Sequence record: NC_020079.1
DNA from: Escherichia phage phAPEC8
Length of the DNA: 64,000 nucleotides
Direction: 5' to 3' (one strand)
Positions within the stretch are counted from its first letter, which is position 1, and each line of letters begins with the position of its first letter. Shown here piece after piece: positions 23,781 through 61,355 of the stretch. A program made the position numbers and the translations under genes. The notes beneath the pieces are model-generated. The model made no database searches. It was not told where the DNA came from and worked only from the letters and a program-made list of their open reading frames with translations.

Positions 23781-23812
23781 ATAGAAAAGGCACCCACTTG
23801 GGTGCCTTTGTT
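23781..23812. terminator. bidirectional terminator at convergent junction
   Basis: AGGCACCCACTTGGGTGCCT hairpin with T-rich tracts on both strands. Confidence 0.6.
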
Positions 23813-24128: not shown

Positions 24129-24929
24129 TTATTTGTTTAAGTGGTCTTCGACCATTTTAATGAAACCTTCATTGCTGAAGGCTGTTGCAGCTTTTTCTCG
24201 GTAAACAAAAACTCCACGATCTTCATAGAGAAGTGTTTCTTCGTAATTAACTCCAGGGTTAACTACAACCATTTTTGTTCCGATGTTAAGAGCAGGAAAA
24301 AGCTCCCAGTTAAAATTGATAACTTGATTAGAGCAACCCACTACAATCACCATATCTTGAGCCGTCAAGCCGTCTAAGATGTGGTACATATCGTTATACA
24401 ATGGGGCAGTCTCCCCAAAGAACACTACATTGGGCTTCACATACTTGTAATCATCTACATCGATAGCAGCATAGCCAACATCTTTGATGATTCTATTGTC
24501 TACGATCACTTCAGGCAGGAAGCCGTGAACATGTAGAACATCTTCATGAACAACACCTGCTTGTTCCAGAAGATCATCTACGTTTGTCGTGATGTTGATA
24601 ACACGATCACAGCCGTACTCTTGGAACCACTCTGCGATCTGGTAATGCGCAGCGTTAGGAGACACACTATCCATCTCTACGCGACGTTTATTGTAGAAGT
24701 CATGAGTTTTACGGTAGAGGTTGTATCCCTCTGCATCTAATCCACCAACAGCGCCAGGAACACACTGTTCTTGCTGGTAGCCAGCACGGAAATTGAAAAT
24801 ATCGCACACTTCAGAAAGGTCGTATTCATCCCACAAAGCTTTCCCACTATCTGTATCAGTGCGGAAAGTACGTACACCGCTATCGGCGCTTAGACCCGCG
24901 CCGCTGATCACTATTAATCGTCTTGGCAT
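24129..24929 (-). CDS. SIR2-family (sirtuin-like) NAD-dependent protein, no zinc-ribbon module
   Basis: GAGLSADSGVRTFR, NAAHYQIAEW, NITTNVDDLLEQAG, HVHG, KPNVVFFGE, VVGCSNQV, VVVNP; no CxxC pairs. Confidence 0.75.
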   Translation of the reverse strand: MPRRLIVISGAGLSADSGVRTFRTDTDSGKALWDEYDLSEVCDIFNFRAGYQQEQCVPGAVGGLDAEGYNLYRKTHDFYNKRRVEMDSVSPNAAHYQIAEWFQEYGCDRVINITTNVDDLLEQAGVVHEDVLHVHGFLPEVIVDNRIIKDVGYAAIDVDDYKYVKPNVVFFGETAPLYNDMYHILDGLTAQDMVIVVGCSNQVINFNWELFPALNIGTKMVVVNPGVNYEETLLYEDRGVFVYREKAATAFSNEGFIKMVEDHLNK

Positions 24930-25417
24930 TCTTCCTCCTCATAATCATCATAATCTTCGTCATCCAAATCGTACACTTCGTCTTGAGAATAACTCACTTC
25001 AAAGTAAATATCAAACTCCGCAAACAAACGTAGAATGTTGGACATGCTGTAATAATTATCGTAGGCAGATTCAGCTTCATAGTAAACATAAAGCAAATGG
25101 TTAGCCTTATCATCTTCCAAATATTTCCCGTCTGCATACGCATAGTCTGCATATGCTTTACCTGCATCTTCCACAAGAGAACGATCAAGCAGAGTAGGAA
25201 ATGGTTTCTCTTTTTCTTTTAGTTTGCTCACCAACCAGTGTGCAATATCATGCCAATCTGCATCCTCTCCGCTGAAGCAGCTTGCGACTTCGCCAAACTT
25301 GGCATCTCCTAAGTCTCCGCTAATAGTGATCATGGTTGAACTATTGTAACCACAAGTCTCGCAATTTGAACAACTGTTGTGCACATGAATTTCTACTTGA
25401 AACATATTTCCTCCCAT
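24914..25417 (-). CDS. hypothetical protein with N-terminal Cys cluster and acidic C-terminus
   Basis: CSNCETCG; DD/EE-rich tail; overlaps SIR2 start by 16 nt. Confidence 0.5.
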   Translation of the reverse strand: MGGNMFQVEIHVHNSCSNCETCGYNSSTMITISGDLGDAKFGEVASCFSGEDADWHDIAHWLVSKLKEKEKPFPTLLDRSLVEDAGKAYADYAYADGKYLEDDKANHLLYVYYEAESAYDNYYSMSNILRLFAEFDIYFEVSYSQDEVYDLDDEDYDDYEEEECQDD

Positions 25418-25463: not shown

Positions 25464-26117
25464 CTATATCAGACTTTCAAGGTATTTGTCAAGGGCTTCT
25501 TGATCACCTTGACAAACATAGCAACGGAAGTCTTGAGCCGAAGGTTGTTTATTTTCATCCCAGTCCCAATAAACATTACCCTTATAACGTGAACCAGGAA
25601 ACTCAAAAGAGGCTGTATGTGTAATGTATCCTGGGCCACCAGTGAAATCACAGAATGAGAATTGGGGGTATGCCGCCTTTACTGCCTCAATAAACCAAGC
25701 TTTACGATCTAAAGCTTCATTGATGCTATACGCATGTCTCTCCATTTCTTCCCACGTTTTCCAGACACTTCTCTCATCAGGAGAAAAGACAAGCCATTCT
25801 GGAAGGTACAGAGTGTCATAGTAATCATCATATTCGATCTCGGAGGCGCACGAAGCTGACTCCTCCAGTTTTGAGTAATCAAAAGCAGAATATACCCACC
25901 AACCATCTTCCAGTAACGCTTTGATAGGGACGAAGCCTTTATCAGCATATTGATCGAATTGTTTGACACGGTGGCTTGTGCAGTCTTCAAACTCACATTC
26001 TAAACGATATGCACCTTTTCGACGAGCCTCAAGACCGTGTGTACTGAAAATAACAACACTTCCTTCACCATCATTACGATCTACTTGATAAGCAACTACT
26101 GGTTTTGAATTTGACAT
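25464..26117 (-). CDS. hypothetical protein
   Basis: ORF tiling. Confidence 0.5.
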   Translation of the reverse strand: MSNSKPVVAYQVDRNDGEGSVVIFSTHGLEARRKGAYRLECEFEDCTSHRVKQFDQYADKGFVPIKALLEDGWWVYSAFDYSKLEESASCASEIEYDDYYDTLYLPEWLVFSPDERSVWKTWEEMERHAYSINEALDRKAWFIEAVKAAYPQFSFCDFTGGPGYITHTASFEFPGSRYKGNVYWDWDENKQPSAQDFRCYVCQGDQEALDKYLESLI

Positions 26118-26800
26118 TATTTCTCCTTATCTAGAAGATTGTTAGACAAAAACACTGCACGAGCAAAACCACGTGCGGTTAAGGATCTAAGTTGTTTTGT
26201 TTTTGCACTAGCTCCACCTAAGCTTTTCCAACCCCAGAAGCAGCCTATATGATCTACTGGTTTCTTCACTGGTTGAACAAAACCATTGCCGTGCCAAATA
26301 CAAGTTTTCTTTGTATACCCATCACGGGTAGGCATTTTAGGATGAAAGCTTCCTTCCTCTTCAAACAAATACCCACCATACTCATAAGGATCAAAGTAAA
26401 AATCGGGTTTACGCCATAAGGTTGAAAGTTTACCTACTGGGTTCTCAATCATCCAAGGAACATTATATTTGTTACCCAAAGCTTCCACTACACGAATATT
26501 AGCTAAAGCTTCATCTAGTTCCTCTGTGCTACGTTCGTGTTTGCTACCACTACCTGCTAACATAGTGCAAGGTGGAAATCCAAAAATAATATCGGGTTTA
26601 GGTATCCCATGATCTTCAGGGTTGAATGTAGAATCTATCCAGGCATTCACATAGGTTATGTTTGGGTGCTCCATCCTAACCTCGTATTTACCGTGATCCC
26701 CTTCATCAGCGTTTACACAAAAACACTTGTGACCTGCTTCGGCATAACGTAACACCATGATCCCAGATCCGTCAAACATAGACAAAACTGTTTTACTCAT
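26117..26800 (-). CDS. C5-cytosine methyltransferase-like protein
   Basis: FDGSG (motif I-like), GFPPCT (PC motif), ENP (ENV-like); start set at MSKT with SD GGAGGGG. Confidence 0.4.
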   Translation of the reverse strand: MSKTVLSMFDGSGIMVLRYAEAGHKCFCVNADEGDHGKYEVRMEHPNITYVNAWIDSTFNPEDHGIPKPDIIFGFPPCTMLAGSGSKHERSTEELDEALANIRVVEALGNKYNVPWMIENPVGKLSTLWRKPDFYFDPYEYGGYLFEEEGSFHPKMPTRDGYTKKTCIWHGNGFVQPVKKPVDHIGCFWGWKSLGGASAKTKQLRSLTARGFARAVFLSNNLLDKEK

Positions 26801-27206
26801 TACCCCTCCATTCAAGACAAGCCATAACTTTACGCCAATCACTTTCTGTAAGAAAAATCTCGTTTGCTTTCTTCCACAAATCTAAATCGTGAAGGGTTGG
26901 AATACGATATGTTAGTTCACAGAATCTATGCTCTTCTTCTGTAATATAACCAAAATGCAGAGCCACATCGTGAAACCAACACCAACCATGCATCTCTCGA
27001 ACAACATGGTCATGCTGAGACATTGTTTTATGCCGTAAACCTAACCAACAAGGAACAGATACTTTAGTAGTCTTTAATCTGTGATCAACAGTATTAGAGT
27101 ATTCAATAATAGCTGTCAGTTTCAATCGTGCTTTTTCTAAATCCTCATGGGTCACTTTGAAATAACTTTCTGAAAGATATCCACACATATTAATAACCTC
27201 CTTCAA
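26793..27206 (-). CDS. hypothetical protein
   Basis: ORF tiling. Confidence 0.5.
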   Translation of the reverse strand: MKEVINMCGYLSESYFKVTHEDLEKARLKLTAIIEYSNTVDHRLKTTKVSVPCWLGLRHKTMSQHDHVVREMHGWCWFHDVALHFGYITEEEHRFCELTYRIPTLHDLDLWKKANEIFLTESDWRKVMACLEWRGNE

Positions 27207-28131
27207 AAGGCTTAACTACATGTTGATTAGCTTTAAAACGTTCAACATAATCGTTTTCGCCCATGTTTTCATATAGCTTAGTAACAACATAAAAGTTTTC
27301 CCAAGCATATTCCCTAAACCAACCACTAGTGATGGATGTGCAGACTTTAGATAAAGCCATTATAAAACTTTGCTTAGGGGTTGGACCTCCGATCTCTTCA
27401 CCGAAAGGAATTTGTGAACGTTCCAAAGCCAAAACACACGCTTCTTCATAAACACCTAACAGGCGCACATGTTTTGGTTGAGCAAAAAACTTTTCTTTGC
27501 TGGTCATAACTTCACTTCCATCTTTCATATAAGATTTATATGCTGGAGCATCCATTACCGCGATTGCTTCATGGATAGAATCATGATCATAAACATACGG
27601 AACCTCATCACCTTTAAAGAAGTCTTTACTTTTTACGTTTAAGTTCGGATGAGAGTAAGTGTATGTTTCTTTCTCACGCAATTCATAAATACTCTTAAGA
27701 TTTTCTGGGATCTTTGCACCCAGTGACCGCATGAAATGAATATCTTTCATAGTTTTAAAGAAGTGAGGACTATCCTTTTTAAAACGATGACTCATTTTAA
27801 GAAGGTAGAGCACATCTAAAGGAGCAACAACATGTCCAGCGTAAGTTCGACGAACATCATCAGAACCTTCACAATAACTAATCAAAGCTTCTGTGCTATC
27901 TCCTTGAGAAGCAATATCATATTCCAAATGTGCACCAGCTATCATTTTGACATGGCCTTTGTTTCCTTTACGTTCTACAAGTTCAACAAACTCATCTTGA
28001 GAGAACATTTTTGATAATTCTTCCCACTCTTGTTCTGTACACAGGTAATCTAAATCTACACAAGGGCGATACAAGTCTTTTCCCATGTCCATAGCATGAA
28101 TTTGTAATGCACGGCTACCAATTAACACCAT
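27190..28131 (-). CDS. Pol-beta-superfamily nucleotidyltransferase-like protein
   Basis: N-terminal GS-x(n)-VDLD signature (IGSRALQ...CVDLDYL). Confidence 0.4.
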   Translation of the reverse strand: MVLIGSRALQIHAMDMGKDLYRPCVDLDYLCTEQEWEELSKMFSQDEFVELVERKGNKGHVKMIAGAHLEYDIASQGDSTEALISYCEGSDDVRRTYAGHVVAPLDVLYLLKMSHRFKKDSPHFFKTMKDIHFMRSLGAKIPENLKSIYELREKETYTYSHPNLNVKSKDFFKGDEVPYVYDHDSIHEAIAVMDAPAYKSYMKDGSEVMTSKEKFFAQPKHVRLLGVYEEACVLALERSQIPFGEEIGGPTPKQSFIMALSKVCTSITSGWFREYAWENFYVVTKLYENMGENDYVERFKANQHVVKPFEGGY

Positions 28132-28221
28132 AATATTTCTCCTCTATTGGTTGATAGGTTAAGTTTATCAAGCTTCCAGATTCCTGTCAATAAAAAACCC
28201 GCCGAAGCGGGTTATTATTTA

Positions 28222-28494
28222 CTAACACATTGAGGAAGAAGAGATCCAAACACCTCTTGTGGTTAAACCATTTTCATCCAACTCTACACCATAATCTTCA
28301 CAAATGAAATCAATATAGTGATCTGCGGCTGGCGTTCCTGTAGGGTAATAAGTTTCTCCGTTACCGTAGTCACCTATCCAAGCTTGTTCCTGAAACTGTT
28401 CACAAAGTTCTTCAATTTCCTTACGAAACTTTCTTTGTGCTTGTTCCATCTCTTTAACTTTCTTTTTTATCAGCAGTTCGCCTTCAGACTCCAC
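28222..28494 (-). CDS. acidic small protein, paralog 1 (C-terminal W-x-SSS-C)
   Basis: ends GVWISSSSMC; highly acidic. Confidence 0.5.
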   Translation of the reverse strand: MESEGELLIKKKVKEMEQAQRKFRKEIEELCEQFQEQAWIGDYGNGETYYPTGTPAADHYIDFICEDYGVELDENGLTTRGVWISSSSMC

Positions 28495-28503
28495 AATCTC
28501 TCC

Positions 28504-28764
28504 TTAACAGCTACTACTGTGCCAAACGCCTTGAGAATTAACGACGAAACCATCATCACCTTCACCATAACAAGAAGAGGATTGCCAATCTTCAAAACAG
28601 ATTGCGTCATCTTCTAAACTAAGACCAAAACCAGCATCTTCAGCTTCTTTTGTAAGTTCGTCCACTAAAGCCATAATAGCTTGGGCTTTTTCAGTTAATT
28701 CTTCAACATTACGATAACTCATTAGTATTTCTCCTCTGGTTGGAAAACGGAACGACATGCCCAC
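28504..28764 (-). CDS. acidic small protein, paralog 2
   Basis: ends QGVWHSSSC. Confidence 0.5.
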   Translation of the reverse strand: MGMSFRFPTRGEILMSYRNVEELTEKAQAIMALVDELTKEAEDAGFGLSLEDDAICFEDWQSSSCYGEGDDGFVVNSQGVWHSSSC

Positions 28765-29030
28765 ATAGAAGCTTCTTTCAACTTAGTCTTTGCTATTGAA
28801 ATTTGGTCAAGGCGGGTGGATATATTGGTAGACTCTTCCAAATCTTCACAATCATCCAGTTCAGTCCACAATTCAGACATTAGAGCATCAAAGATTAAGC
28901 CTAATCGAACTTCAGCATCTTTAAGAGCATTCACTTTACCAATTTTGTCATCGGTATGCGGTTTATAACCTTTGATATCTTCGATTCCCACTTTACCTCC
29001 TATTAACAACTTAAAGAAGATGGATGCCAA
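28722..29030 (-). CDS. hypothetical protein
   Basis: ORF; overlaps neighbour, start uncertain. Confidence 0.35.
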   Translation of the reverse strand: MASIFFKLLIGGKVGIEDIKGYKPHTDDKIGKVNALKDAEVRLGLIFDALMSELWTELDDCEDLEESTNISTRLDQISIAKTKLKEASMWACRSVFQPEEKY

Positions 29031-29200
29031 TTTGTTCCAGTATTCTCATTTTCATCTTCTGGATCATAATAACCACCCATCCCATATTCAGGGGAGAAAC
29101 TGAAACCTTCACCAGTCTCGTCTGCTAACTGCTCTGCTTCCGCTAAAGCCTCATAAGCTGCTTTTACGGCTTCTTCTACTGTTTTAAACTTGGTCGTCAT
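29003..29200 (-). CDS. acidic small protein, paralog 3
   Basis: ends NWHPSSLSC. Confidence 0.5.
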   Translation of the reverse strand: MTTKFKTVEEAVKAAYEALAEAEQLADETGEGFSFSPEYGMGGYYDPEDENENTGTNWHPSSLSC

Positions 29201-29474
29201 AAAATTTCTCCTCTCCTAAAGACATGTTGACATGAAATGCGCGGTATGTAAATTCGTTGTCCGTTGTGTTAGAATAAAACTCAAATTGAACAACACCATC
29301 TTGAGAAGACAGATACATGCCAATTTGAACTGTTCCTTCTGGTACTAGGTAAGCATACTCTGGACGTAGTGTTACATTGTAAAAATAAAGTTCCCCAACA
29401 CCCATTTCATCCCAAGCTTCCCAAGCGGTAACGAAGTTACTTTCAAAACTTGTTACTGATCTGAACTCTGCCAT
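29184..29474 (-). CDS. hypothetical protein
   Basis: ORF tiling. Confidence 0.5.
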   Translation of the reverse strand: MAEFRSVTSFESNFVTAWEAWDEMGVGELYFYNVTLRPEYAYLVPEGTVQIGMYLSSQDGVVQFEFYSNTTDNEFTYRAFHVNMSLGEEKFYDDQV

Positions 29475-29965
29475 AAAACCTCCTCAATCTTGTAGTTTGA
29501 CTCCATCTCCAACACATTTCCACGAACGTCTCTCCGAAGAAAGGCATAAGCTTTATTAGGTATTGTAGACTCATATTTAACCATATCTGGCACAGCAAAA
29601 GATACTACTACTCCTGCTGGGCTTCTGTCAAGAGCCTTATTAATATTTCTAAGGATATCGTTAGCCAAGATTTCTGCCAATTCTCCAAGAACGGTTTCGG
29701 TTATATCTTTATATCCCATTAAGTATTTGTTGATATCTTTCATCTCTGTATTGTTCAGAGTATAATCCAAAGGATAGAAATTCAAAGCGGAGTCACTTTT
29801 ATGTGTCCACATGAAATGCACCCGATCCGAGCAGAATCGTAACCCTCTTTGAAGAATATCTTCTACAACAGGTAGAATTTCTTTTGTCACATCATTAACC
29901 ATGTTGTAATCTAAGATTTCTGCCAAGTTTGTTCTTTGTTCACCACGTTTACGTTTAGGAATCAC
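29453..29965 (-). CDS. hypothetical protein
   Basis: ORF tiling. Confidence 0.5.
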   Translation of the reverse strand: MIPKRKRGEQRTNLAEILDYNMVNDVTKEILPVVEDILQRGLRFCSDRVHFMWTHKSDSALNFYPLDYTLNNTEMKDINKYLMGYKDITETVLGELAEILANDILRNINKALDRSPAGVVVSFAVPDMVKYESTIPNKAYAFLRRDVRGNVLEMESNYKIEEVLWQSSDQ

Positions 29966-30560
29966 TTGTTATTGCCCTCATTACCAAAGGTCGTAGAAAA
30001 TCGTAAATCTCTTGTTTTGTTTTCCCACGAATATTTAAACAAGGAACATTATTGGCTTTAGCTATCTTCCAAGCCGTAGCTGTTCCACCTTTTGCATCTC
30101 CATGTTTATCAGTATTAGCACAAGCCAACAAGAAACATGATGGAGCAGGATTCTCCAAATCTCTACCTAACACTTGATGCACATTACGTTGGTGCAATTT
30201 TCTAGCACCCTGCTTAAGCTTTTCATAGGCTGGGTGAACATCTTTGATCCATTGCACAGAGATAGCATAGTTCATTGTATCTGGTTTTGCAAGAACAATA
30301 ACATCCCCTGGAATCTGATTACCTTTGAAATTTTCCCAAGGAACATAAATCTCCTTGTTAGTAGGATTTTCAGACTCTTGGACACCTGTTTCAAAAGCAG
30401 AATCACTACCCTCTGCCTTCCCAGACCTTAATTTAAACCCAAGGTTTGAAAGCCATTTCCCTATGCCTACCATCAAAGCCCACTCTTCTTCGGATATGTC
30501 TCTACTTCCAACTCCCGTATAGAACAGTTCTGCCATAATCACCTCAACAAGTAATTTCAA
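29955..30560 (-). CDS. DprA/Smf-like (SLOG-superfamily) Rossmann-fold protein
   Basis: YTGVGSR ... SGKAEGSDSAFETG pattern. Confidence 0.45.
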   Translation of the reverse strand: MKLLVEVIMAELFYTGVGSRDISEEEWALMVGIGKWLSNLGFKLRSGKAEGSDSAFETGVQESENPTNKEIYVPWENFKGNQIPGDVIVLAKPDTMNYAISVQWIKDVHPAYEKLKQGARKLHQRNVHQVLGRDLENPAPSCFLLACANTDKHGDAKGGTATAWKIAKANNVPCLNIRGKTKQEIYDFLRPLVMRAITSDS

Positions 30561-30852
30561 AAGGTGTATACGGTTCCGTATTTCTCATGATCCAAGGACT
30601 GCTAGGATTGCTCGGATCATAAGGACCAAAAGGTTTTATGGTCGGTTGTGTTTCTTTCTTCTGAATCTCTTCAAAAATACGACGAAGTTCAGAATATTCT
30701 TGATCCACCATAAGATTCGGTGCATCTGATTCTACAGCTTGCAGGTTATCTTCCTTAAGAACAATCTCACGAACAAGATTAACATCTTCTGTTTCTAAGA
30801 TAACTTCTTTACGGATATTACCTACACTTTGAATAATTGTAATCTTATACAT
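30544..30852 (-). CDS. hypothetical protein
   Basis: ORF tiling. Confidence 0.5.
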   Translation of the reverse strand: MYKITIIQSVGNIRKEVILETEDVNLVREIVLKEDNLQAVESDAPNLMVDQEYSELRRIFEEIQKKETQPTIKPFGPYDPSNPSSPWIMRNTEPYTPFEITC

Positions 30853-31595
30853 TAATCCTCCTCAAGAGTTGAATAAAATTGAAGACCACCGTCCATATCG
30901 AAATAAGCAAATGTTAAGTTATTATTGAACACAGATCCAGTATCCATATAAACACGATTCGCATTGATAATAGGTGTTTTTACATAAGAGTGTCCATGAA
31001 ACACATAATCCACACCCATCACAACAGGAAGTTTCATTCCCTCTTTAGCACAGTCTACCATATCTCTGTCCCACATAAGTGCTTCAGCAAAACGGTTTTC
31101 CTGTGTTTTTGTCATCTTCGAAATGTATTCTGGGATATCTGTTACAGGGAGATATTCCAAAGAAGATGGATACCCACCATGAATAAACGCAAGTTTCATG
31201 CCTCTGTAGTTAACAATGAGAACAACAGGTAAATCTTCTGTCATCATTGCTAAGGCTGTAGCTCCTTCTTCACCACATTCTTCAAAGACCGTATATCCTC
31301 CATTTTGATACCAACACTCGTAGTAGCTACGATCTCCTTCCAGCATACCTTTAATCATCATGTCTTCATGATTGCCACGAATAGCGTAGCGATTGTGTTT
31401 ACGAGTAAATTCTAAAACACAACGAAAGTTTTGCTTTCCACGGTCAGTAAGATCTCCTAGAGATACAACCACATCTGTATCTCGGATACCTAACTTTGCC
31501 TTTCCTTTTTCATACAAATTATAACAACCGTGTAGATCTCCAATTATAAAAAGATCTTGATCGCTTTTAACAGTAATTTCTCTGTGTATGATCAC
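30852..31595 (-). CDS. Ser/Thr protein phosphatase (lambda PPase-like metallophosphatase)
   Basis: GDLHGCY, GDLTDRG, GNHEDMM, VFHGHS. Confidence 0.9.
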   Translation of the reverse strand: MIIHREITVKSDQDLFIIGDLHGCYNLYEKGKAKLGIRDTDVVVSLGDLTDRGKQNFRCVLEFTRKHNRYAIRGNHEDMMIKGMLEGDRSYYECWYQNGGYTVFEECGEEGATALAMMTEDLPVVLIVNYRGMKLAFIHGGYPSSLEYLPVTDIPEYISKMTKTQENRFAEALMWDRDMVDCAKEGMKLPVVMGVDYVFHGHSYVKTPIINANRVYMDTGSVFNNNLTFAYFDMDGGLQFYSTLEED

Positions 31596-33210: not shown

Positions 33211-33720
33211 TTAAACAAAATAAAATGGTTGAGAGAGGCCCAAACGATTCTTTGGGTCGTATACATACCAAGCGTATGCTGTCTTATCTGTTCCACCTGC
33301 AACAAACGAAGGCCGTTCTGAAAGGACTATAAGGTTTGTTGGTGGATTCTTTTGATGGAACTCTCGTCGTTTCTTTGACTCCAAGAAGCCCAACCGAAGA
33401 AGATAAATACAAACATCCGCCTCTTTTAAGCTCTTTTCCAAGAACTCCATTGCTAACTTAAATGGAGGATTTGTGATTATAATATCGGGACGATTTTCCC
33501 ATTTATGACTAAAATAATCTTTACCTTCTTCAAGTTCGCAATATTCTGAACCTTCAGGAAAATGGCGATAAATCGCTTCAGCTTCACCTCTACAAGGTTC
33601 TGCAAAAACCCAACCTTCTTCCTTTAGATTTTTGAAATCTATAACACTAAACAAACTATTGATTGCTTTTTGCGGTGTCGGATAATAATCGCTCGTTGGG
33701 CGATCATAATCTAATGCCAT
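33211..33720 (-). CDS. DNA N6-adenine methyltransferase-like protein
   Basis: DIIITNPPF motif IV; EPCRGEA motif I-like. Confidence 0.6.
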   Translation of the reverse strand: MALDYDRPTSDYYPTPQKAINSLFSVIDFKNLKEEGWVFAEPCRGEAEAIYRHFPEGSEYCELEEGKDYFSHKWENRPDIIITNPPFKLAMEFLEKSLKEADVCIYLLRLGFLESKKRREFHQKNPPTNLIVLSERPSFVAGGTDKTAYAWYVYDPKNRLGLSQPFYFV

Positions 33721-36870: not shown

Positions 36871-37131
36871 TTACTCCGCAATTTGAGCCATGAGATCACG
36901 CAGTTCGGTAAAACCGCCTACGTATGTTACCTCCCCGTTCACTTCAGACAGAATTTGTGGAAATGTGCGTGGAGGAACTCCGGTAAGATCAACAACTGTT
37001 TTAGTCATTGATTCTAAATCATAGTCTTGATCAAGACTTAAATATTCAAACTGTTTATTGCGCATGGTTAATAGTTGTTTTGACATTTCACAAAATTGAC
37101 AGTTAGGTTTACCAAAAATTACAAATTCCAT
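36871..37131 (-). CDS. glutaredoxin/NrdH-like redoxin
   Basis: 86 aa, N-terminal CQFC active-site motif. Confidence 0.6.
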   Translation of the reverse strand: MEFVIFGKPNCQFCEMSKQLLTMRNKQFEYLSLDQDYDLESMTKTVVDLTGVPPRTFPQILSEVNGEVTYVGGFTELRDLMAQIAE

Positions 37132-37973
37132 TACCTCTCCTTATTAAGTAATACTGCTAAAGACTGTTCAATACCTTTATTTAAATCTGATTTTGTAAGA
37201 TAGTGACTGGTTACTAGTTGTGACTTCATCGGACGTGCTGCTGGAGCATTATAGGTTGAAGCTGATACCGCCGATATCTTAACAGGTTCTGGCATCTGTG
37301 TCAAGATCTTTTCCGCAAACTCCGCCCAAGAAATAAGATGGCTTCCTGCAAAATGGTAAGTCTTAACAGACCTTGACCAACCTGTTCTTAATACTTCAAA
37401 AATAGCTTCTGCTAAATCTGGAGCATATGTTGGACAAGAGAACTGATCAGCAACAATAATAAAATCACGTTGTCCATCATTATAGCGAGACAACATGGTT
37501 TTTAGAAAGTTATTTCCAAATTCGCTATATACCGAGGCTGTTCGAATAATATATGCATTTGGGTTAACTCCTCGCACCATTTTTTCACCAAGTTCTTTCG
37601 TATACCCATAATTGTTTATTGGGTTAGGTGTAGTATCTTCAAAAATAGGATGAGAATAATTAAAAATATAGTCTGTAGAAATATGCACAAAATCAATTTT
37701 AAGTTTGCTGCACACTGCCGCAATATTTGCAGGTCCATACGCATTAACAGCCAAAGCAGTAGCAAAATCATGTTCTGCTTTATCTACAGCCGTATAAGCG
37801 GCGCAATTAATAACACCATCTACATAATCTTCAATAATAGCGTTTCGCACAGCTTCAAAATTTGTAATATCTACACGTTCTTTAGGATAAATTAAAGATA
37901 CATTTGAAGGAGCCACTTTACGTAAAGCTTGTCCCAGTTGTCCATTACCGCCCAATACCAGATATGTTAGCAT
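37131..37973 (-). CDS. rmlD: dTDP-4-dehydrorhamnose reductase
   Basis: N-terminal GGNGQLG Rossmann motif; size and operon context. Confidence 0.8.
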   Translation of the reverse strand: MLTYLVLGGNGQLGQALRKVAPSNVSLIYPKERVDITNFEAVRNAIIEDYVDGVINCAAYTAVDKAEHDFATALAVNAYGPANIAAVCSKLKIDFVHISTDYIFNYSHPIFEDTTPNPINNYGYTKELGEKMVRGVNPNAYIIRTASVYSEFGNNFLKTMLSRYNDGQRDFIIVADQFSCPTYAPDLAEAIFEVLRTGWSRSVKTYHFAGSHLISWAEFAEKILTQMPEPVKISAVSASTYNAPAARPMKSQLVTSHYLTKSDLNKGIEQSLAVLLNKER

Positions 37974-38533
37974 ACACCCTCGCTACGTAACTGTTGAAAA
38001 GATTTAGCCATTGCATCTTTTGTTGATAGAATAGGTTTAAAACCTTCGTCAAAAATCATATCGAAGCCCCAATCGATCCCTATATCAGGATCATCCCAAC
38101 GTAAACTTTGTTCACTAGAAGGGTCGTATGGAGTTGTGCATTTGTATTCAAAGATAGCATCCATACTCAAAACTATAAAACCATGAGCCAAACCAGGCGG
38201 AAGCCAAAACTGCGTATGGTGTCGTGCACGAAGAACAACACCGTCCCAAGCACCGTAAGTTGGACTATCTTTACGTAAATCTACAGCGAAATCCAATACT
38301 TCCCCACTTACACAACGAACTAGCTTACCTTGCGGGTTATTTGTTTGAAAGTGCATTCCTCGCAAAACACCGAAGTTTGATTTAGACATGTTATCTTGAA
38401 CGAAAGTTTGTCTACCAATAATATCTTCGTATTTTTGTTCATTATATGTTTCTAGAAAGAAACCACGATCATCTTTATAAACGTCTGGTTTGATAATTAC
38501 CGCACCTTCAATTTTTGTTTTTTCTACTTTCAT
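37967..38533 (-). CDS. rmlC: dTDP-4-dehydrorhamnose 3,5-epimerase
   Basis: [35 protein letters not shown]; start at internal ATG. Confidence 0.9.
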
Positions 38534-39408
38534 TTTCTCTCCGCTAATTTGAGTAGGTATTGCCCGTACTCTGTTTTCTTCAGTGAGTTTCCATGATACA
38601 CCAAAGTCTCTAAAGAAATCCACCCTTTTTTGAAAGCAATTTCTTCCAAGCACGCAATCTTCAATCCTTGACAGTTCTCAATAGTCTGCACGAATTGACC
38701 AGCTTCCATCAGACTGGCGTGTGTTCCTGTGTCAAGCCAAGTAAATCCTCGTCCGAGAACTTCCACTTGTAACTTCCTGTCTTCTAGGTAGCTGCGATTG
38801 ATATCAGTGATCTCCAGTTCTCCACGCGCGGAAGGGGTTACTTCTAATGCACGTTGAATAACAGAGTTATCATAGAAATACAAACCTGTGACAGCATAAT
38901 CTGATTTAGGATTTTCAGGTTTCTCTTCAATAGAAATAGCTTGACGATTACTCCCAAATTCAACCACACCGAATCGTTCAGGATCTTTCACCAAATACCC
39001 GAAAATACAAGCTCCGCCCCAAACATCTACCATCTCACTGGCGTTAATCAGTAGTTTACCAAAGCTTTGTCCGAAGAATAGGTTGTCACCTAAAATAAGA
39101 GCAACAGAGTCTTCTCCGATAAAATCTTTACCTATGATGAAAGCTTCCGCAAGACCTCGTGGCTCGGATTGGATTGCGTAAGTGAGTTTTATCCCAAACA
39201 TAGACCCATCTCCGAGAAGATACTCAAAGTCTTCCTGATCACCTGGTGTGGTGATGATTAAAATATCCTTAATGTCAGCCAACATCAATACCGATAAAGG
39301 GTAGTAGATCATGGGTTTGTCATACACAGGGAGCAATTGCTTGCTCACACTGCGTGTTACCGGATGAAGGCGGGTTCCACTTCCTCCCGCCAAAATAATA
39401 CCTTTCAT
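38530..39408 (-). CDS. rmlA: glucose-1-phosphate thymidylyltransferase
   Basis: [18 protein letters not shown]. Confidence 0.9.
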
Positions 39409-39416
39409 AACCCTCC

Positions 39417-40409
39417 TTAAATTTTCTCACTCCACCATTGAGGGTTGTTTAAGTACCATTCAATCGTTGAGTAGAGATCTTGTTCAAATGTAGAGTTTGC
39501 ACTCCAGCCCAGTTCAGACTCTATCTTAGAAGGATTGATTTCATAACGCAAGTCATGTCCTTTACGATCTTCAACAAAAGTTATCAAGTTGGAAGAAGGG
39601 TAGGTTACTGCTTCTGGATGTACAGTATCCATATAGTCACAAACCATATAGATGATCTCCATATTGGTTTTGGGATTACGTGTTCCAACATTATACGTTT
39701 GACCTGGTTCTCCACCTGTTGCCACTTGAAGAATAGCTCGCGCATGATCCTCAACAAAAAGCCAGTCTCGCACCTGGTCGCCTTTACCATACACCGGAAT
39801 CTCTTTATTCGTCAAGATACTTGTGATGATTTTTGGGATCAGCTTTTCTGGATGTTGATAAGGCCCAAAGTTATTGGAGCAGTTGGTTATCACAACAGGC
39901 AAATCGTAGGTGCGGTGCCAAGCTTTCACAAGATGGTCAGATGCTGCCTTAGACGCACTGTACGGGCTTGAAGGGGCATAAGCTGTCTCTTCGGTAAAGG
40001 GAACGCCAGAGTCTGCCATATCGCCGTACACTTCGTCTGTGGAGACGTGTACGAACATCTTCAGTTTATTTTTTGGGAGGAGCCTTGCAGCTTCCAATAA
40101 ATTGTATGTACCGATAATATTGGAGTCGATGAAAACTCGTGGATTCTTGATAGAATTATCCACATGACTTTCTGCCGCTAAGTGAATGATGAAGTCAGGA
40201 TTGCACTCTACTACTAAACTTTTGACCTGGGTTTCGTTTGCCAAATCTGTCATGCTTAGTTTAACGTGAGTGATATCGCCTACATTCTCAATATCTGCTG
40301 CATAGCCCATCTTATCAACGACAAAAACTTCGTTATTAGGATCTTGACAAAGAGAGCGCACCACGGCACTCCCAATAAAACCAAGACCACCTGTTACCAG
40401 ATAGCGCAT
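39417..40409 (-). CDS. rmlB: dTDP-glucose 4,6-dehydratase
   Basis: [16 protein letters not shown]; extended SDR fold. Confidence 0.9.
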
Positions 40410-59142: not shown

Positions 59143-59214
59143 GGCCCTGTAGCTCAATGGGAGAGCTGTCGGCTCATAACCGATAGGTAGCTGGATCGAA
59201 ACCAGCCAGGGCCA
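59143..59214 (+). tRNA. tRNA-Met (anticodon CAT)
   Basis: manual cloverleaf: acceptor GGCCCTG/CAGGGCC, loop CTCATAA, T-loop GATCGAA, CCA encoded. Confidence 0.75.
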
Positions 59215-59219
59215 CCAAC

Positions 59220-59291
59220 GTCTTTATGGTGTAATGGATAGCACAGGAGTCTTCTAAACTCTTAGTCAAGGTTCGATTCCTTGTAAAGACA
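59220..59291 (+). tRNA. tRNA-Arg (anticodon TCT)
   Basis: acceptor GTCTTTA/TAAAGAC, loop CTTCTAA, T-loop TTCGATT. Confidence 0.7.
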
Positions 59292-59528
59292 CCAGAACAT
59301 TTTAACATGAATTAGCTCAAGTGATTTGAACCCACTACTGATCATGGTGGCAGAGAATGAGGCAAGTATGTCAGACATTATAAACAAAGGCCACGGTTAC
59401 ATTAGAAGACATAAATGCTCGAAGAGCACCGTTCGTGGAGAACGGGGGTTGGTGGAGTCACCATTCATGGTAAAATGTTTTAAAAAACTATTGACAACTA
59501 ACATTATTTTATGTTAGATTATAAGTAT

Positions 59529-59616
59529 GGAAGGGCAAATCGACGTGGCGACGAAAACGGTCTTGAAAACCGCCGAGCTTGAAAGAGCCTTGGGAGTTCG
59601 ACTCTCCCTCCTTCCG
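59529..59616 (+). tRNA. tRNA-Ser (anticodon TGA), type II
   Basis: long variable arm; loop CTTGAAA; T arm GGGAG-TTCGACT-CTCCC. Confidence 0.7.
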
Positions 59617-59623
59617 CCAGATT

Positions 59624-59706
59624 GGTAGATTGGTGAAATGGTAGCCACGACAGTTTGCTAAACTGTAGTCGGAAACGGCGTGTAGGTTCGAGTCCTACAT
59701 CTACCG
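59624..59706 (+). tRNA. tRNA-Ser (anticodon GCT), type II
   Basis: acceptor GGTAGAT/ATCTACC; stem ACAGT/ACTGT loop TTGCTAA; long variable arm. Confidence 0.7.
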
Positions 59707-59836
59707 CCAAGTTGTTTTTAATGTAGCGTTGCGGCTACTTACTTTAGCAGAGTAAATCTTCGGCAAGTGGCGGTAACCACTTTACCGATACCGCATAGTC
59801 AGTAAGGCGAATACTGGCTACTTTAAAAACAATTTT

Positions 59837-59917
59837 GTGAGATTGGCAGAGTGGTCGATTGCGGGGGACTGTAAATCCCTTCTGAAAGGCGCGGTGGTTC
59901 GAATCCATCATCTCACA
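59837..59917 (+). tRNA. tRNA-Tyr (anticodon GTA), type II
   Basis: acceptor GTGAGAT/ATCTCAC; loop CTGTAAA; long variable arm. Confidence 0.7.
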
Positions 59918-59926
59918 CCAAATTAA

Positions 59927-60009
59927 GATGAGTTGGCTGAATGGTTTAAGCGGCGGACTGTTAATCCGTGTTCGAAAGAACGATATAGGTTCAAATCCTA
60001 TACTCATCG
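59927..60009 (+). tRNA. tRNA-Asn-like (anticodon GTT) with 15-nt variable arm
   Basis: anticodon arm GCGGA-CTGTTAA-TCCGT matches E. coli tRNA-Asn; extra GTTC-GAAA-GAAC hairpin in variable region. Confidence 0.55.
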
Positions 60010-60019
60010 CCAGAATTAT

Positions 60020-60096
60020 GGACTTGTAGAGTTAAGGTAAACCCCCAGTCGCCAAGAGGCTTCTGGAATTGCAGGTATCGAATCCTGCCGAGTCCC
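60020..60096 (+). tRNA. tRNA-like element, non-canonical, anticodon unresolved
   Basis: 7-bp acceptor GGACTTG/CGAGTCC and T-arm-like GCAGG..CCTGC, but no canonical anticodon arm and 8-nt T-loop. Confidence 0.3.
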
Positions 60097-60102
60097 AGCT
60101 TT

Positions 60103-60174
60103 GCTCCTATAGTATAATGGCTATTACAACGGTTTTGTAATCCGTGGATCTCTGTTCGATTCAGAGTGGGAGCA
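60103..60174 (+). tRNA. tRNA-Thr (anticodon TGT)
   Basis: acceptor GCTCCTA/TGGGAGC; loop TTTGTAA; T arm CTCTG-TTCGATT-CAGAG. Confidence 0.65.
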
Positions 60175-60452
60175 CCAACACAACATTAAGGGCACTGTGA
60201 TTGATCGTCGTATCCTGTGCACAAGGTCTGTTCGAAAGACAGTGTTCTTAGTATTGTGTTGATCACACAAAAAGAGTTACCTGAAACTTGACCGGAGTAG
60301 GGTTGGATGGGGCAAAAGAAGAAGCGGCTCTCCCATCGACAGCAACGAAGAATAATATTTGACTTTGGTTTTGTATTATTTTAAGTTAGCTTACCGAACG
60401 TAGGGCTAGTCACCCAACGGGATACTCGTCACTGTCCCACTCAATAAAACTA

Positions 60453-60483
60453 TTGACAACCAATAGTAAAATGTAGTATAGTA
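60453..60483 (+). promoter_or_regulatory. promoter (AACTATTGACAA ... TAGTAT) upstream of tRNA-Gly
   Basis: -35 TTGACA, 16 bp spacer, -10-like hexamer. Confidence 0.5.
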
Positions 60484-60493
60484 AAGATGTAGG

Positions 60494-60564
60494 GCGTTCT
60501 TGGTGTAGCGGTAGCATTCCGTCCTTCCAAGTCGGCGGCACGAGTTCGATCCTCGTAGAACGCT
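60494..60564 (+). tRNA. tRNA-Gly (anticodon TCC)
   Basis: acceptor GCGTTCT/AGAACGC; D-loop AGCGGTAG; loop CTTCCAA; T arm ACGAG-TTCGATC-CTCGT. Confidence 0.7.
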
Positions 60565-60666
60565 CCAAATTATTTAATAAAGGGTTGCCAGAAAACTTTC
60601 TCTTTTACTCATGGTTTTCTCCTTCTCTCACACCTCTTCTGGTTGCCCTTCATTAAATGATTTATT

Positions 60667-60739
60667 GGTTTGTAGTGTAGTCCGGTAGCACACGACACTT
60701 TGACTGTCGTAGGTTTGGTTCAAATCCAGACAGACCAGC
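60667..60739 (+). tRNA. tRNA-Gln (anticodon TTG)
   Basis: acceptor TGGTTTG/CAGACCA; stem CGACA/TGTCG loop CTTTGAC. Confidence 0.7.
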
Positions 60740-60834
60740 CATATAACAAAGGTGAGTCACTACCTCAAGTGTGAAGTTAAAAACGAGGAGCCGCCGAACA
60801 CTTTCTTTTGCGGCGTACCTTTAGAATGTTATGA

Positions 60835-60908
60835 CGGAATTTAGCTCAGTTTGGTAGAGTGTACGCTTTGGGAGCGTATTGTCGCAGGTTCGAATCCTGC
60901 AATTCCGA
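60835..60908 (+). tRNA. tRNA-Pro (anticodon TGG)
   Basis: acceptor CGGAATT/AATTCCG; D arm TAGCTCAGTTTGGTAGAG; loop TTTGGGA; T arm GCAGG-TTCGAAT-CCTGC. Confidence 0.8.
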
Positions 60909-60917
60909 CCAATTAAA

Positions 60918-60988
60918 TGTTTCGTAGTTCAATGGTAGAACCCACGACTGATAATCGTGAGATACAAGTTCGATTCTTGTCGAAACAA
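60918..60988 (+). tRNA. tRNA-Ile (anticodon GAT)
   Basis: acceptor TGTTTCG/CGAAACA; stem CACGA/TCGTG loop CTGATAA. Confidence 0.75.
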
Positions 60989-60993
60989 CCAGT

Positions 60994-61062
60994 TTCCCGT
61001 TAGACTTACAGGATAAGAGTTCCACAATTTATTGTGACGCTGGTTCGAATCCAGCACGGGAT
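60994..61062 (+). tRNA. degenerate tRNA-like element (possible tRNA pseudogene)
   Basis: 6-bp acceptor TCCCGT/ACGGGA and canonical T arm GCTGG-TTCGAAT-CCAGC, but anticodon region is a palindrome with no 7-nt loop. Confidence 0.3.
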
Positions 61063-61069
61063 ACATAAT

Positions 61070-61145
61070 AGCGGGATAGAGGAGTCTGGTCGTCCTCGCC
61101 AGTTTCATATGCTGGAGATCATTGGTTCAAATCCAATTCCCGCCT
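61070..61145 (+). tRNA. tRNA with CAT anticodon (Met, initiator or Ile-lysidine)
   Basis: D arm GAGG..CCTC; stem CCAGT/GCTGG loop TTCATAT; A1-C72 mismatch. Confidence 0.6.
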
Positions 61146-61355
61146 CCAAATATCGCTTGCCAGCGGTATCTTTGAAGACCTTGCCTGGTTCCTTCTAAGA
61201 TGGAGGGGTGCGACTCCTTAACGCACAATTATAATAAAGCATTTCAAATTAACAGTATTTATTAGCCTCCTTATTGGAGGCTTTTTGCTATCTATTGAAT
61301 AAAACTTGACTTATTATTTTTTATATGTTAAGATAAAGTTTAGGAGGATTTTATT

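Follow-up and report, generated by a model that had tools for sequence, protein, structure and literature searches.

The early region of Escherichia phage phAPEC8 raises the question of whether a SIR2-family protein, a SLOG protein and a nucleotidyltransferase (NTase), all encoded within 6.4 kb, form one phage module that makes, reshapes or destroys Thoeris or CBASS signals, as a first-pass annotation of this DNA had tentatively proposed. The window analyzed, a stretch of 64,000 nucleotides from the record NC_020079.1, belongs to a Phapecoctavirus genome with 99.6% identity to sequenced E. coli phages. All of the open reading frames named in that annotation proved to be real minus-strand genes at the positions given, and more than 60 near-identical Phapecoctavirus genomes have them as annotated coding sequences. 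The genes of the region are as follows.

24129-24929, minus strand: SIR2-family protein, 266 aa (PF02146, E 6e-20), in a separate downstream unit with a 167-aa acidic protein at 24914-25417
26117-26842, minus strand: Dcm-like DNA cytosine methyltransferase, annotated as such in phage tuntematon, sharing the predicted unit of the NTase gene
27190-28131, minus strand: 313-aa NTase, with an N-terminal Pol-beta/MenT-like core that spans DUF7277 and the first part of DUF7275, and then a helical C-terminal extension
28222-28494, minus strand: paralog a, 90 aa, pI 4.40, of the YG-G ... W-SSS-C family (phrog_899, E 5e-14; family HMM, E 3e-17)
28504-28722, minus strand: paralog b, 72 aa from its ATG, pI 4.05 (phrog_899, E 3e-6; family HMM, E 4e-7)
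28722-28991, minus strand: Vs.4/Acb2 homologue, 89 aa, GTG start, a cyclic-oligonucleotide sponge and anti-CBASS protein by homology (PF24729 and PDB 7UQ2)
29003-29200, minus strand: paralog c, 65 aa, pI 4.05, the most canonical member (phrog_899, E 1.4e-13; family HMM, E 2e-25)
29184-29474, minus strand: 96-aa acidic protein (phrog_4991), in an overlapping gene string with the paralog array
29453-29965, minus strand: 170-aa protein (phrog_8569), in the same overlapping string
29955-30536, minus strand: stand-alone SLOG/DprA-like Rossmannoid protein, 193 aa (phrog_768 'DprA-like', E 2e-62), with its annotated ATG at 30536

Taken singly, the domain and paralogy assignments all survive profile and structure searches. 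The GS...DxD signature of the Pol-beta NTase is invariant in alignment and its fold is backed by structure search; the SIR2 gene, noted as lying about 6 kb away, matches its Pfam family; and the DprA/SLOG-like frame drawn at 29955-30560 has both its phrog_768 match and a SLOG fold by structure, with a slightly later annotated start. The three tandem acidic proteins described at 28222-29200 are indeed paralogs, each matching phrog_899, although an unrelated fourth gene among them (28722-28991) had been overlooked.

What fails is their union into one nucleotide-signalling module, as SIR2, SLOG and NTase are not co-conserved. In other phages, SLOG lies near the NTase or DUF7275 gene in two or three of 14 lineages from other genera and SIR2 in one, that of Vibrio phage PVA23, where a SIR2 homologue (35% identity, E 5e-41) is found 2.1 kb from a DUF7275 gene. 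This locus speaks for a module, as do the close spacing of the three domains in the window, the SLOG genes within 3 kb of the NTase and the NAD-salvage genes (NAMPT) near it in phages Aes508 and Mendera, and the signal sponge apparently encoded among the genes. Against these stand, besides the distribution, an NTase that is MenT-like rather than CD-NTase-like, a SLOG protein nearer to DprA and LOG than to ThsA, and the placement of the genes in different predicted transcription units, divided by terminator-plus-promoter sites at ~28.2 kb and ~25.45 kb. The SIR2 gene lies 2.3 kb from that of the NTase and 5 kb from that of the SLOG protein, and the scan marked terminator-like sites at 25448-25424 and 24121-24104 in support of its separate unit. 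The boundary beside the NTase gene consists of two elements.

28162-28190, minus strand: candidate sigma-70-like promoter, TTGACA-17-TAAACT, TG-extended and followed by a GAGGAG ribosome-binding site, before the NTase gene (consensus match only)
28196-28213, minus strand: intrinsic-terminator hairpin AACCCGC-TTCG-GCGGGTT with a T-run, ending the upstream unit (scan and sequence)

The RNA fold of this hairpin has a dG of -14.8 kcal/mol (z -3.9), and none of 200 shuffles was as stable. A single signal-manipulating module is quite improbable. The region falls within the long block of leftward early genes that this virulent Phapecoctavirus carries; it is not one machine, and the explanation that we favor for it as a whole, with somewhat better than even confidence, is that it would hold three functionally separate items: a Vs.4/Acb2 sponge, an NTase with small acidic proteins, and a stand-alone SLOG protein, with SIR2 a neighbor and not a partner. 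The Dcm-like methyltransferase matched MTase_II/DruM in PADLOC (E 1e-4).

Counter-defence content does appear to be present, by way of a gene of known type that had gone unrecognized, so the earlier suggestion of a counter-defence or signal-manipulating set holds for the sponge and not for a SIR2-SLOG-NTase unit. Close homology indicates that 28722-28991 encodes a cyclic-nucleotide sponge of the Vs.4/Acb2 type: its product matches the Pfam family Acb2_Tad1_hairpin (PF24729) at E 1.2e-18 and 67.5 bits (cut-off 27), and in phmmer matches T4 Vs.4 (PDB 7UQ2) at E 3e-42 with 77% identity over residues 3-89. T4 Vs.4 is a hexamer that binds cGAMP (PMC10449767), and its Y8A and F82C substitutions abolish or weaken nucleotide binding (PMC12657218); the equivalents of both residues are kept in the alignment. 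By analogy with T4, a hexamer of the homologue would sequester 3'3'-cGAMP and related cyclic oligonucleotides that host CBASS produces, such that the CBASS effector would never be triggered. Within the genus the gene occurs as two allele types, one T4-like (77%) and the other JS98-like (74%), which are 65-66% identical to each other in a setting of flanking genes that are 94-100% identical; allele exchange in a near-identical background is as expected for an arms-race gene. Nothing in the analysis argues against this probable sponge assignment.

The second item centers on the 313-aa NTase, whose Pfam matches are DUF7277 at residues 1-87 (E 8e-14) and DUF7275 at residues 107-297 (E 1e-75). The Pol-beta catalytic motifs hG[GS] ... 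[DE]h[DE]h ... h[DE]h are present, with G5, S6, D26, D28, and E70 invariant in an alignment of 27 sequences down to 51% identity, and the modelled protein has the alpha-beta-alpha-beta-alpha-beta core fold of NTases. The AF2 model lies nearest to the MenT1 toxin, with MenT1, MenT3, and MenT4 as the nearest solved structures, and the invariant K112 and D130 (at least 90% conserved) are candidates by spacing for the C-terminal motifs III (Lys) and IV (Asp), which complete the toxin active site and correspond to K137 and D152 in MenT1. The helical C-terminal extension of ~140 residues is absent from MenT and has no solved relative. A profile search of PDB sequences with the NTase did not find MenT, no Pfam match to AbiEii/DUF1814 appeared beside DUF7277 and DUF7275 at E <= 0.1, and no AbiEi/COG5340-type antitoxin gene lies upstream. 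Identity as a cGAS/CD-NTase was rejected, as structures of that class appeared only at Foldseek E 0.18-0.24 (probability 0.11-0.21) and PADLOC gave no hit. The NTase resembles MenT/AbiEii and the antibiotic NTases and not cGAS/CD-NTases. Such an enzyme would most likely transfer NMPs to the 3' end of RNA, the best precedent for which is the acceptor end of tRNA.

The small acidic proteins (pI 4.05-4.40) share a W-x-S-S-x(0-2)-C motif at the C-terminus. The family, which has 537 cluster representatives, opens with an amphipathic helix and runs through an AYGMGG-YYP motif and a variable acidic linker to W-x-SSS-x-C as its last residues; the conserved module always stands at the extreme C-terminus. 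The residues Y, G, G, W, S, and the C-terminal Cys are invariant. Neither Pfam nor PDB offered a relative of the family (AYGMGG...WxSSxxC-COOH). Paralog b would be 86 aa long if started from a GTG at 28764 instead of the annotated ATG, which overlaps the stop codon of the Vs.4 homologue by 1 nt. Several paralogs per NTase are unusual for an antitoxin.

These proteins, and not SIR2 and SLOG, form the conserved unit with the NTase. With the family HMM, small-family genes were found within 4 kb of the NTase, mostly directly upstream, in nine of 15 sampled phage loci (Phapecoctavirus, Muldoonvirus, Dhakavirus, Tulanevirus, Lazarusvirus, Otagovirus, Busanvirus, Menderavirus, and an Erwinia jumbo phage); in eight of these lineages the small helical acidic proteins lie upstream and in one downstream, and the other neighbors of the pair differ. 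A tblastn search placed the small protein at one site per genome in 405 records, and per host genus it has nearly as many records as the NTase (Escherichia, 249 vs. 258; Klebsiella, 34 vs. 35; Enterobacter, 34 vs. 36; Shigella, 18 vs. 18). Within Straboviridae, part of the synteny may be inherited and not independently maintained. No small-family neighbor was detected at the distant NTase/DUF7275 loci of Bacillus phage G, Brevibacillus phage Sundance, Streptomyces phage Limpid, Gordonia phage WilliamBoone, and Vibrio phage PVA23, which makes the partnership clade-limited or replaceable.

The proposed module would thus comprise one to four tandem small acidic proteins encoded beside a MenT/AbiEii-like NTase with a large helical extension. 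MenT1 has its active site blocked by MenA1, a helical protein of 68 aa whose gene lies upstream of that of the toxin (PMC10435456). The small phage proteins would likewise be cognate binding partners of the NTase, whether as active-site blockers or regulators like MenA1, as specificity adaptors, or as substrates, and early in infection the two together would act in host takeover or counter-defence. By its resemblance to MenA1-MenT1, the pair may be regarded as a new, uncharacterized candidate lead.

The same resemblance admits a toxin-antitoxin or abortive-infection-like cassette in the manner of MenAT or AbiE, which would act in host shut-off or competitor exclusion and not in counter-immunity. 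The solved MenT toxins nearest in structure, a gene order as in menA1-menT1, and the predicted strong early-type promoter of the NTase itself are all consistent with such a cassette, yet virulent phages have no need of an addiction system, up to four diverged 'antitoxin' paralogs would face each toxin, the strictly conserved C-terminal W-SSS-C is without antitoxin precedent, and MenT lacks the 140-residue extension; we consider this reading unlikely.

The terminator and promoter that part the small-protein array from the NTase gene in the window phage argue against strict co-transcription, and they favor a further reading in which the small proteins act independently as inhibitors in host takeover or anti-defence, perhaps as protein or DNA mimics. 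On this reading they would have no more in common with the NTase than a plastic early region, and the NTase would function by itself, for instance in repairing tRNA 3' ends. Small, acidic (pI ~4), tandem, and diversified proteins are typical of phage inhibitor arrays, and they are missing beside distant NTase homologues. In Hallingskeid, ACP17, Limpid, WilliamBoone, and Mendera the NTase has genes for RNA ligase, polynucleotide kinase or tRNA nearby, and the window phage has a tRNA set of its own, with 11 tRNA genes in the window. Independence is nevertheless hard to square with an adjacency seen in nine genera whose flanks are otherwise unrelated and with nearly matching phyletic counts, and we hold it to be doubtful, if the least so of the readings set against partnership.

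A last proposal, that the small proteins are RiPP-like precursors with a leader helix, a GG motif, and a C-terminus rich in Ser and Cys, whose Ser or Tyr residues the NTase would nucleotidylylate, possibly followed by elimination and thioether formation, is highly improbable. It would account for several paralogous precursors beside one enzyme, as in prochlorosin-type systems, and for the invariant Y, G, G, W, S, and C-terminal C. Two very weak matches, one with a lanthipeptide family at E 0.07 and one with the Nif11 leader at E 0.044 (in one of 36 members), are, however, at chance level, the family is conserved at its C-terminal end and not in a leader alone, and no cyclase, protease or exporter is encoded near the small-protein genes. 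To our knowledge, no Pol-beta NTase acts as a RiPP dehydratase. The partnership of NTase and small proteins remains the reading that we prefer for this pair.

The third item, the SLOG protein, belongs to a very widespread phage family, with homologues in 1467 phage records. Structure confirms the SLOG fold, and the model is Rossmannoid with Gly-rich phosphate-binding loops. It was compared across the superfamily with DprA, ShosA, LOG, the MoCo carrier protein, YpsA, the SLOG domain of ThsA, and ORF83 of PhiDruSM1. Identity as DprA was rejected: DNA_processg_A scored 12.8 bits against a cut-off of 29.6, a profile search of PDB reached DprA at only E 0.09 over 42 residues, and the single 193-aa domain differs from DprA in being without the SAM and DML1 accessory domains or a winged helix. 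The catalytic motif of LOG phosphoribohydrolases is PGGxGTxxE, in place of which the window protein has K-G-G-T-A-T-A, with an invariant Ala where Glu is expected, and this identity was likewise dismissed. Lacking the LOG Glu, the SAM domain, and the winged helix, the protein is not to be assumed to have either known SLOG activity. Nor does it fit a mimic of ThsA-type SIR2-SLOG proteins, in that SIR2 and SLOG are neither fused nor adjacent here and the SLOG protein is nearer to DprA and LOG than to ThsA. It would bind a nucleotide-derived ligand or ssDNA and act independently. The Queuovirinae phage PhiDruSM1 plated less well on AVAST type III hosts once ORF83, a Smf/DprA-like gene, had been deleted (bioRxiv 10.1101/2024.04.14.589459). 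A Queuovirinae phage homologue is 29% identical to the window protein, and through it we infer a family-level link to ORF83 and its reported anti-AVAST III role.

Among known systems, MenT1-MenA1, MenT3/MenT4, and AbiEii-AbiEi are DUF1814 NTase toxins with upstream antitoxins, whereas the window NTase has no DUF1814 match and the proteins upstream of it are of an apparently unrelated family, with YGMGG and a C-terminal W-SSS-C, in one to four copies. MenAT and AbiE reside on bacterial chromosomes, while the window pair is in a virulent phage. The MNT-like NTases of phages such as Av05 and BCP1 are likewise phage Pol-beta NTases near DNA methyltransferases and NAD-related genes, and have been proposed to act against signalling by making competitor cyclic dinucleotides (Ho et al., bioRxiv 10.1101/2022.06.09.495361). 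Their signature, GS-x-AY[GAN]T-x4-SDxD and then NP-x-h2[DE], is absent from the window NTase, in which 19 residues separate GS from DxD, and a loosened regular expression for the first motif had no match in any frame of the window; the sequence thus points to a different clade. Gad2 is also an anti-defence phage protein of NTase fold (anti-Gabija, with a predicted NTase domain) and has homologues reported in Brevibacillus prophages, but it is 400 aa long, and an indirect search gave no sign of homology. Among the best 40 records of a tblastn search with the homologue from Brevibacillus phage Sundance, no SPbeta-like phage appeared, and Sundance and Bacillus phage G were the only Firmicutes phages. 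T4 Vs.4 offers the closest likeness: the window protein is of equal length, counting one extra N-terminal residue, and conserves the N- and C-terminal hairpin segments along with the binding Tyr and Phe, while the central ~35 residues diverge. In T-even relatives such as JS98, the Vs.4 gene lies ~6 kb away, beside regB and vs.1, whereas in this Stephanstirmvirinae phage, whose genus has the two exchanged alleles, it sits inside the small-protein array and is translationally coupled to one of the paralogs.

The 3.7 kb surrounding the nucleotidyltransferase (NTase) gene and its small acidic neighbours match Escherichia phage iGC_PHA_EC001 at 99.6% identity and tuntematon, ESCO13, phAPEC8_ev052 and others at 99% or above; tuntematon is classified in the subfamily Stephanstirmvirinae, genus Phapecoctavirus. 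The locus lies inside a long minus-strand gene run, traced by the sign of the GC skew, that extends from ~24 kb to ~57 kb. The first-pass annotation had recognized here an NTase-like ORF, three tandem acidic paralogs spanning 28222-29200, a SLOG/DprA-like Rossmann protein and a nearby SIR2 gene, all of which are upheld below, and each of these ORFs is an annotated CDS in near-identical records, nearly always labelled 'hypothetical protein'. It had passed over a Vs.4/Acb2 gene situated among them:

24129-24929, minus strand: SIR2 gene
27190-28131, minus strand: NTase, 313 aa
28222-28494, minus strand: paralog a, 90 aa
28504-28722, minus strand: paralog b, 72 aa
28722-28991, minus strand: Vs.4/Acb2 homologue, 89 aa, between paralogs c and b
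29003-29200, minus strand: paralog c, 65 aa
29955-30536, minus strand: SLOG protein, 193 aa from the annotated ATG
30852-31595, minus strand: NinI-like Ser/Thr phosphatase

At the edge of the run, a perfect 10-bp-stem hairpin (23786-23809), which scores as a terminator on both strands, marks the exact junction of a plus-strand block (ending at 23743) and the minus-strand block (starting at 23813), and coincides with a change in GC-skew sign; a second change occurs near 58 kb. The minus strand also carries a dTDP-rhamnose gene run (37131-40409), comprising a reductase, a 3,5-epimerase and a glucose-1-phosphate thymidylyltransferase by the tuntematon annotation, which in a virulent phage suggests that sugar nucleotides are made to modify DNA or a surface.

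The NTase matches Pfam DUF7277 (residues 1-87) and DUF7275 (residues 107-297) as well as phrog_2141, and has homologues in 734 phage records. In an alignment of 27 homologues, reaching down to 51% identity, G5/S6, D26/D28 and E70 are invariant and represent the Pol-beta hG[GS] motif, the DxD motif and the third carboxylate, respectively; K112 is invariant as well, and D130 reaches at least 90% conservation. Because the motifs are invariant, we infer that the enzyme is catalytically competent. NCBIfam gave no useful match for any of ten proteins, and PADLOC none for the NTase, SLOG protein, Vs.4 or paralogs. PDB searches with single NTase and SLOG sequences and with family profiles returned nothing, or just a 42-residue DprA motif match, and structure prediction was therefore needed for both proteins. 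The modelled NTase has its fold relatives among MenT/AbiEii-type and antibiotic NTases, not cGAS-like enzymes, and its last ~140 residues form a helical extension with no solved relative. In predicted working it is most like DUF1814/MenT-AbiEii, though it does not belong to that group by sequence. By structural analogy with MenT1, MenT3 and MenT4, its most plausible activity is the addition of nucleotides to RNA 3′ ends; MenT enzymes lengthen tRNA acceptor stems (PMC10435456). The plus strand of the window carries 11 tRNA genes (59143-61148; Met twice, Arg, Ser, Tyr, Asn, Thr, Gly, Gln, Pro and Ile), a cluster that becomes relevant if a MenT-like NTase acts on tRNA 3′ ends.

Two other classes of phage NTase were considered and rejected. 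A relaxed regular expression for the Av05-type MNT motif, drawn from the CDN-making phage NTases of Ho et al., had 0 matches in the six frames of the window, which places the NTase outside that MNT-like class. For Gad2, the anti-Gabija NTase, tblastn with the Brevibacillus homologue returned no SPbeta-like phage in the best 40 records, and so gave no evidence of a link.

The three acidic paralogs all match phrog_899, can be aligned with one another and have pI values of 4.05-4.40. Searching 1.84 billion cluster representatives with a family profile recovered 537 members (clusters at 50% identity) at E ≤ 1e-3, which are 65-200 aa long; among the 150 matches listed, the match reaches the last residue in nearly all. 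An alignment of 36 sequences shows an N-terminal amphipathic helix (..AY.AI.EAE.IADE.G..F.F), an invariant Y-G-x-G-G motif (AYGMGGTYYP), a variable acidic linker and the ending GW-x-SSS-x-C-COOH, in which W, S and the terminal C are invariant. The family lacks a Pfam model and any PDB relative: searches of Pfam with 36 members and of the PDB with the profile gave nothing beyond chance-level hits and designed helical bundles, the latter reflecting a generic helix. A reading of the small proteins as internal head proteins, based on L-x-E motifs of capsid-targeting sequences, was discarded since the motif is too short to carry meaning.

The association of this family with the NTase was assessed by comparing the window with NTase-homologue loci of 14 further phage lineages, using HMMs for the small family, the NTase and the SLOG protein and tblastn with 17 window proteins. 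Nine lineages, the window included, have small-family genes within 4 kb of the NTase:

Small-family copies and their position relative to the NTase
Phapecoctavirus (window): 3 copies, upstream, nearest 90 nt away
Serratia phage WSPA: 3 copies, directly upstream
JS98: 4 copies, 1.1-2.2 kb upstream
Aeromonas phage Aes508: 2 copies, directly upstream
Erwinia jumbo phage Hallingskeid: 2 copies, one directly upstream
Pseudomonas phage PPSC2: 1-2 copies, 1.4 kb upstream
Acidovorax phage ACP17: 1 copy, directly upstream
Stenotrophomonas phage Mendera: 2 copies, just downstream
Acinetobacter phage DP45: 2 copies, 0.8 kb upstream

The remaining neighbours vary among these nine loci. No small-family neighbour was detected at the distant homologues of Bacillus phage G, Brevibacillus phage Sundance (two scans), Streptomyces phage Limpid, Gordonia phage WilliamBoone and Vibrio phage PVA23, the last three of which encode a shortened N-terminal domain. 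The pairing is also supported by tblastn, in which paralog a has a single location in each genome across 405 records, with host-genus counts nearly equal to those of the NTase (Escherichia 249 versus 258, Klebsiella 34 versus 35, Enterobacter 34 versus 36, Shigella 18 versus 18). The 65-aa paralog c retrieved just 75 Stephanstirmvirinae-type records and is too insensitive a query for co-occurrence statistics.

Consensus predictions from sequence divide the locus into three transcription units:

Phosphatase, g102, SLOG protein, g170, g96, paralog c, Vs.4, paralog b, paralog a
NTase, g137, Dcm-like methyltransferase, g217
g167, SIR2

From the phosphatase gene (31595) to paralog a (28222), neighbouring genes either overlap or lie at most 11 nt apart. 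In the 90-nt gap that precedes the NTase gene, a GC-rich hairpin with a T-run (28213-28196; dG -14.8 kcal/mol, z -3.9) is directly followed by TTGACA-17-TAAACT with an upstream TG and then by a GAGGAG ribosome-binding site. Terminator-like sites also precede the g167-SIR2 pair (25448-25424) and follow SIR2 (24121-24104). The phosphatase that heads the string of SLOG, Vs.4 and paralog genes has a 36%-identical homologue in Hallingskeid (L005, 7645-8394), 0.7 kb downstream of the NTase. The Dcm-like methyltransferase (26117-26842, minus strand) is one of two separate DNA methyltransferase genes; the other (33211-33720, minus strand, 169 aa) lies further upstream, and both likely have anti-restriction functions.

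The first-pass annotation had tentatively joined SIR2, SLOG and NTase into one linked set. Co-conservation, which it had itself named as a refuting test, did not bear this out: among the 14 other lineages, just Aes508 and Mendera have a SLOG gene near the NTase and just PVA23 has a SIR2 gene there, and the appealing narrative built on the three domains is corrected here as unsupported. The interpretation is nevertheless supported in part, for counter-defence content is present, through the overlooked Vs.4/Acb2 gene rather than the proposed linkage.

Taken individually, the SLOG protein matches phrog_768 ('DprA-like') at E 2e-62, with a Pfam DprA match below threshold, and a sequence search found no PDB relative; modelling confirmed a SLOG fold. 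Its invariant motifs are GVGSR, R37-x-G-x-A-x-G-x-D45, R117-N118 and G150-G151-T152. It lacks the LOG catalytic Glu and the DprA accessory domains, and probably binds a nucleotide-derived ligand or ssDNA. Literature searches on anti-defence by phage SLOG/DprA-like proteins and by Phapecoctavirus gave just indirect leads (Atd1, ORF83 and ShosA). ORF83, a stand-alone Smf/DprA-like protein of the Queuovirinae phage PhiDruSM1, is modelled as an AMP binder and is reported as necessary for the phage to plate fully on AVAST type III hosts (bioRxiv 10.1101/2024.04.14.589459); a Queuovirinae phage encodes a homologue with 29% identity to the window protein, which is a putative counterpart of ORF83. A 214-aa homologue from E. 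coli genomes (P0162; 37% identity, 131 member sequences) is presumably prophage- or island-borne.

The SIR2 protein matches PF02146 at E 6e-20. The KVP40-like phage PVA23 encodes a full-length homologue (L016, 7766-8527; 35% identity, E 5e-41) 2.1 kb downstream of its DUF7275 gene, a second, distant case of NTase/DUF7275-SIR2 proximity that may be due to chance. NAD-salvage genes lie within 3-5 kb of the NTase homologue in two unrelated phages, Aes508 (L004, 14180-15652) and Mendera (L008, 84-2666), and echo the NAD theme of the window SIR2; both include a nicotinamide phosphoribosyltransferase, and Mendera also has an annotated 'nucleotidyl transferase' with a Rossmann-like fold. Within the window, the SIR2 start is overlapped by 16 nt by g167 (24914-25417, minus strand), a 167-aa acidic protein whose N-terminus, HNSCSNCETCGY, is rich in Cys and whose tail, DLDDEDYDDYEEEECQDD, is extremely acidic (pI 4.05, 40 D+E). 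Given this overlap and the predicted unit that they share, g167 may be a partner of SIR2. The 'major head protein' label on its EF1-1 homologue looks wrong.

The Vs.4 homologue matches Pfam Acb2_Tad1_hairpin (E 1.2e-18) and, over its full length, T4 Vs.4 (PDB 7UQ2; 77% identity, E 3e-42), an anti-CBASS sponge that forms a cGAMP-binding hexamer (PMC10449767). The substitutions Y8A and F82C abolish or weaken nucleotide binding by Vs.4 (PMC12657218), and the equivalents of both residues are kept in the window protein. Close homology shows it to be a sponge that would sequester CBASS cyclic oligonucleotides, and it adds a member to a known family, although public annotations still call its gene a 'hypothetical protein'. 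Its stop codon shares one base with the ATG of paralog b; in JS98, by contrast, vs.4 adjoins regB and vs.1, ~6 kb from the NTase. Between the window and Ro121c4YLVW or EF1-1, all flanking proteins show 94-100% identity, whereas Vs.4 shows just 65-66%. Phapecoctaviruses carry two alleles, the T4-like type of the window (77%) and a JS98-like alternative (74%), each in roughly half of 63 full-length records. Comparison of window positions 28722-28991 with two other Phapecoctavirus loci (L012, 3023-3298; L013, 4001-4276) shows conserved N- and C-terminal thirds and a swapped centre, which suggests recombination with T-even phages; such local exchange is as expected of a gene under arms-race selection. 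Therapy cocktails make use of phAPEC8-like phages. That these carry an Acb2-type sponge, with two exchangeable alleles, predicts how they behave on CBASS-bearing strains and, since Acb2 sets off Panoptes (PMC12657218), on Panoptes-bearing strains as well.

The NTase/small-protein module, which is widespread, testable and located beside a bona fide anti-defence gene, is the lead to follow, and its repeated adjacency provides a concrete and cheaply testable hypothesis. The literature search found no paper mentioning DUF7275, and the NTase lacks the Ho et al. motif and shows no link to Gad2, so this recurring pairing of a toxin-antitoxin-like NTase with a small partner in virulent phages appears to be undescribed. 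A broader model, which we hold to be rather improbable, is that the NTase and the AYGMGG...W-SSS-C proteins constitute an undescribed two-component system shared by hundreds of large, virulent proteobacterial phages, in which the small proteins, as nucleotidylylated substrates or diversified adaptors/inhibitors, would direct or gate a tRNA/RNA 3′-end transferase that disables host translation or defence RNAs, or shields phage tRNAs from acceptor-stem-targeting immunity, with the Vs.4/Acb2 insertion and recurring NAD-salvage/SIR2 neighbours marking an anti-defence island. From synteny and the MenA1-MenT1 precedent, we infer that the small acidic proteins are partners of the NTase. They may block it as MenA1 does, or act as its substrates or adaptors. 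MenA1 is a helical protein of 68 aa whose gene lies upstream of menT1, and it occludes two active sites of MenT1 (PMC10435456). MenA1-MenT1 is the nearest model for the small proteins, even though no sequence relationship joins the families and the presence of several paralogs per enzyme is unusual.
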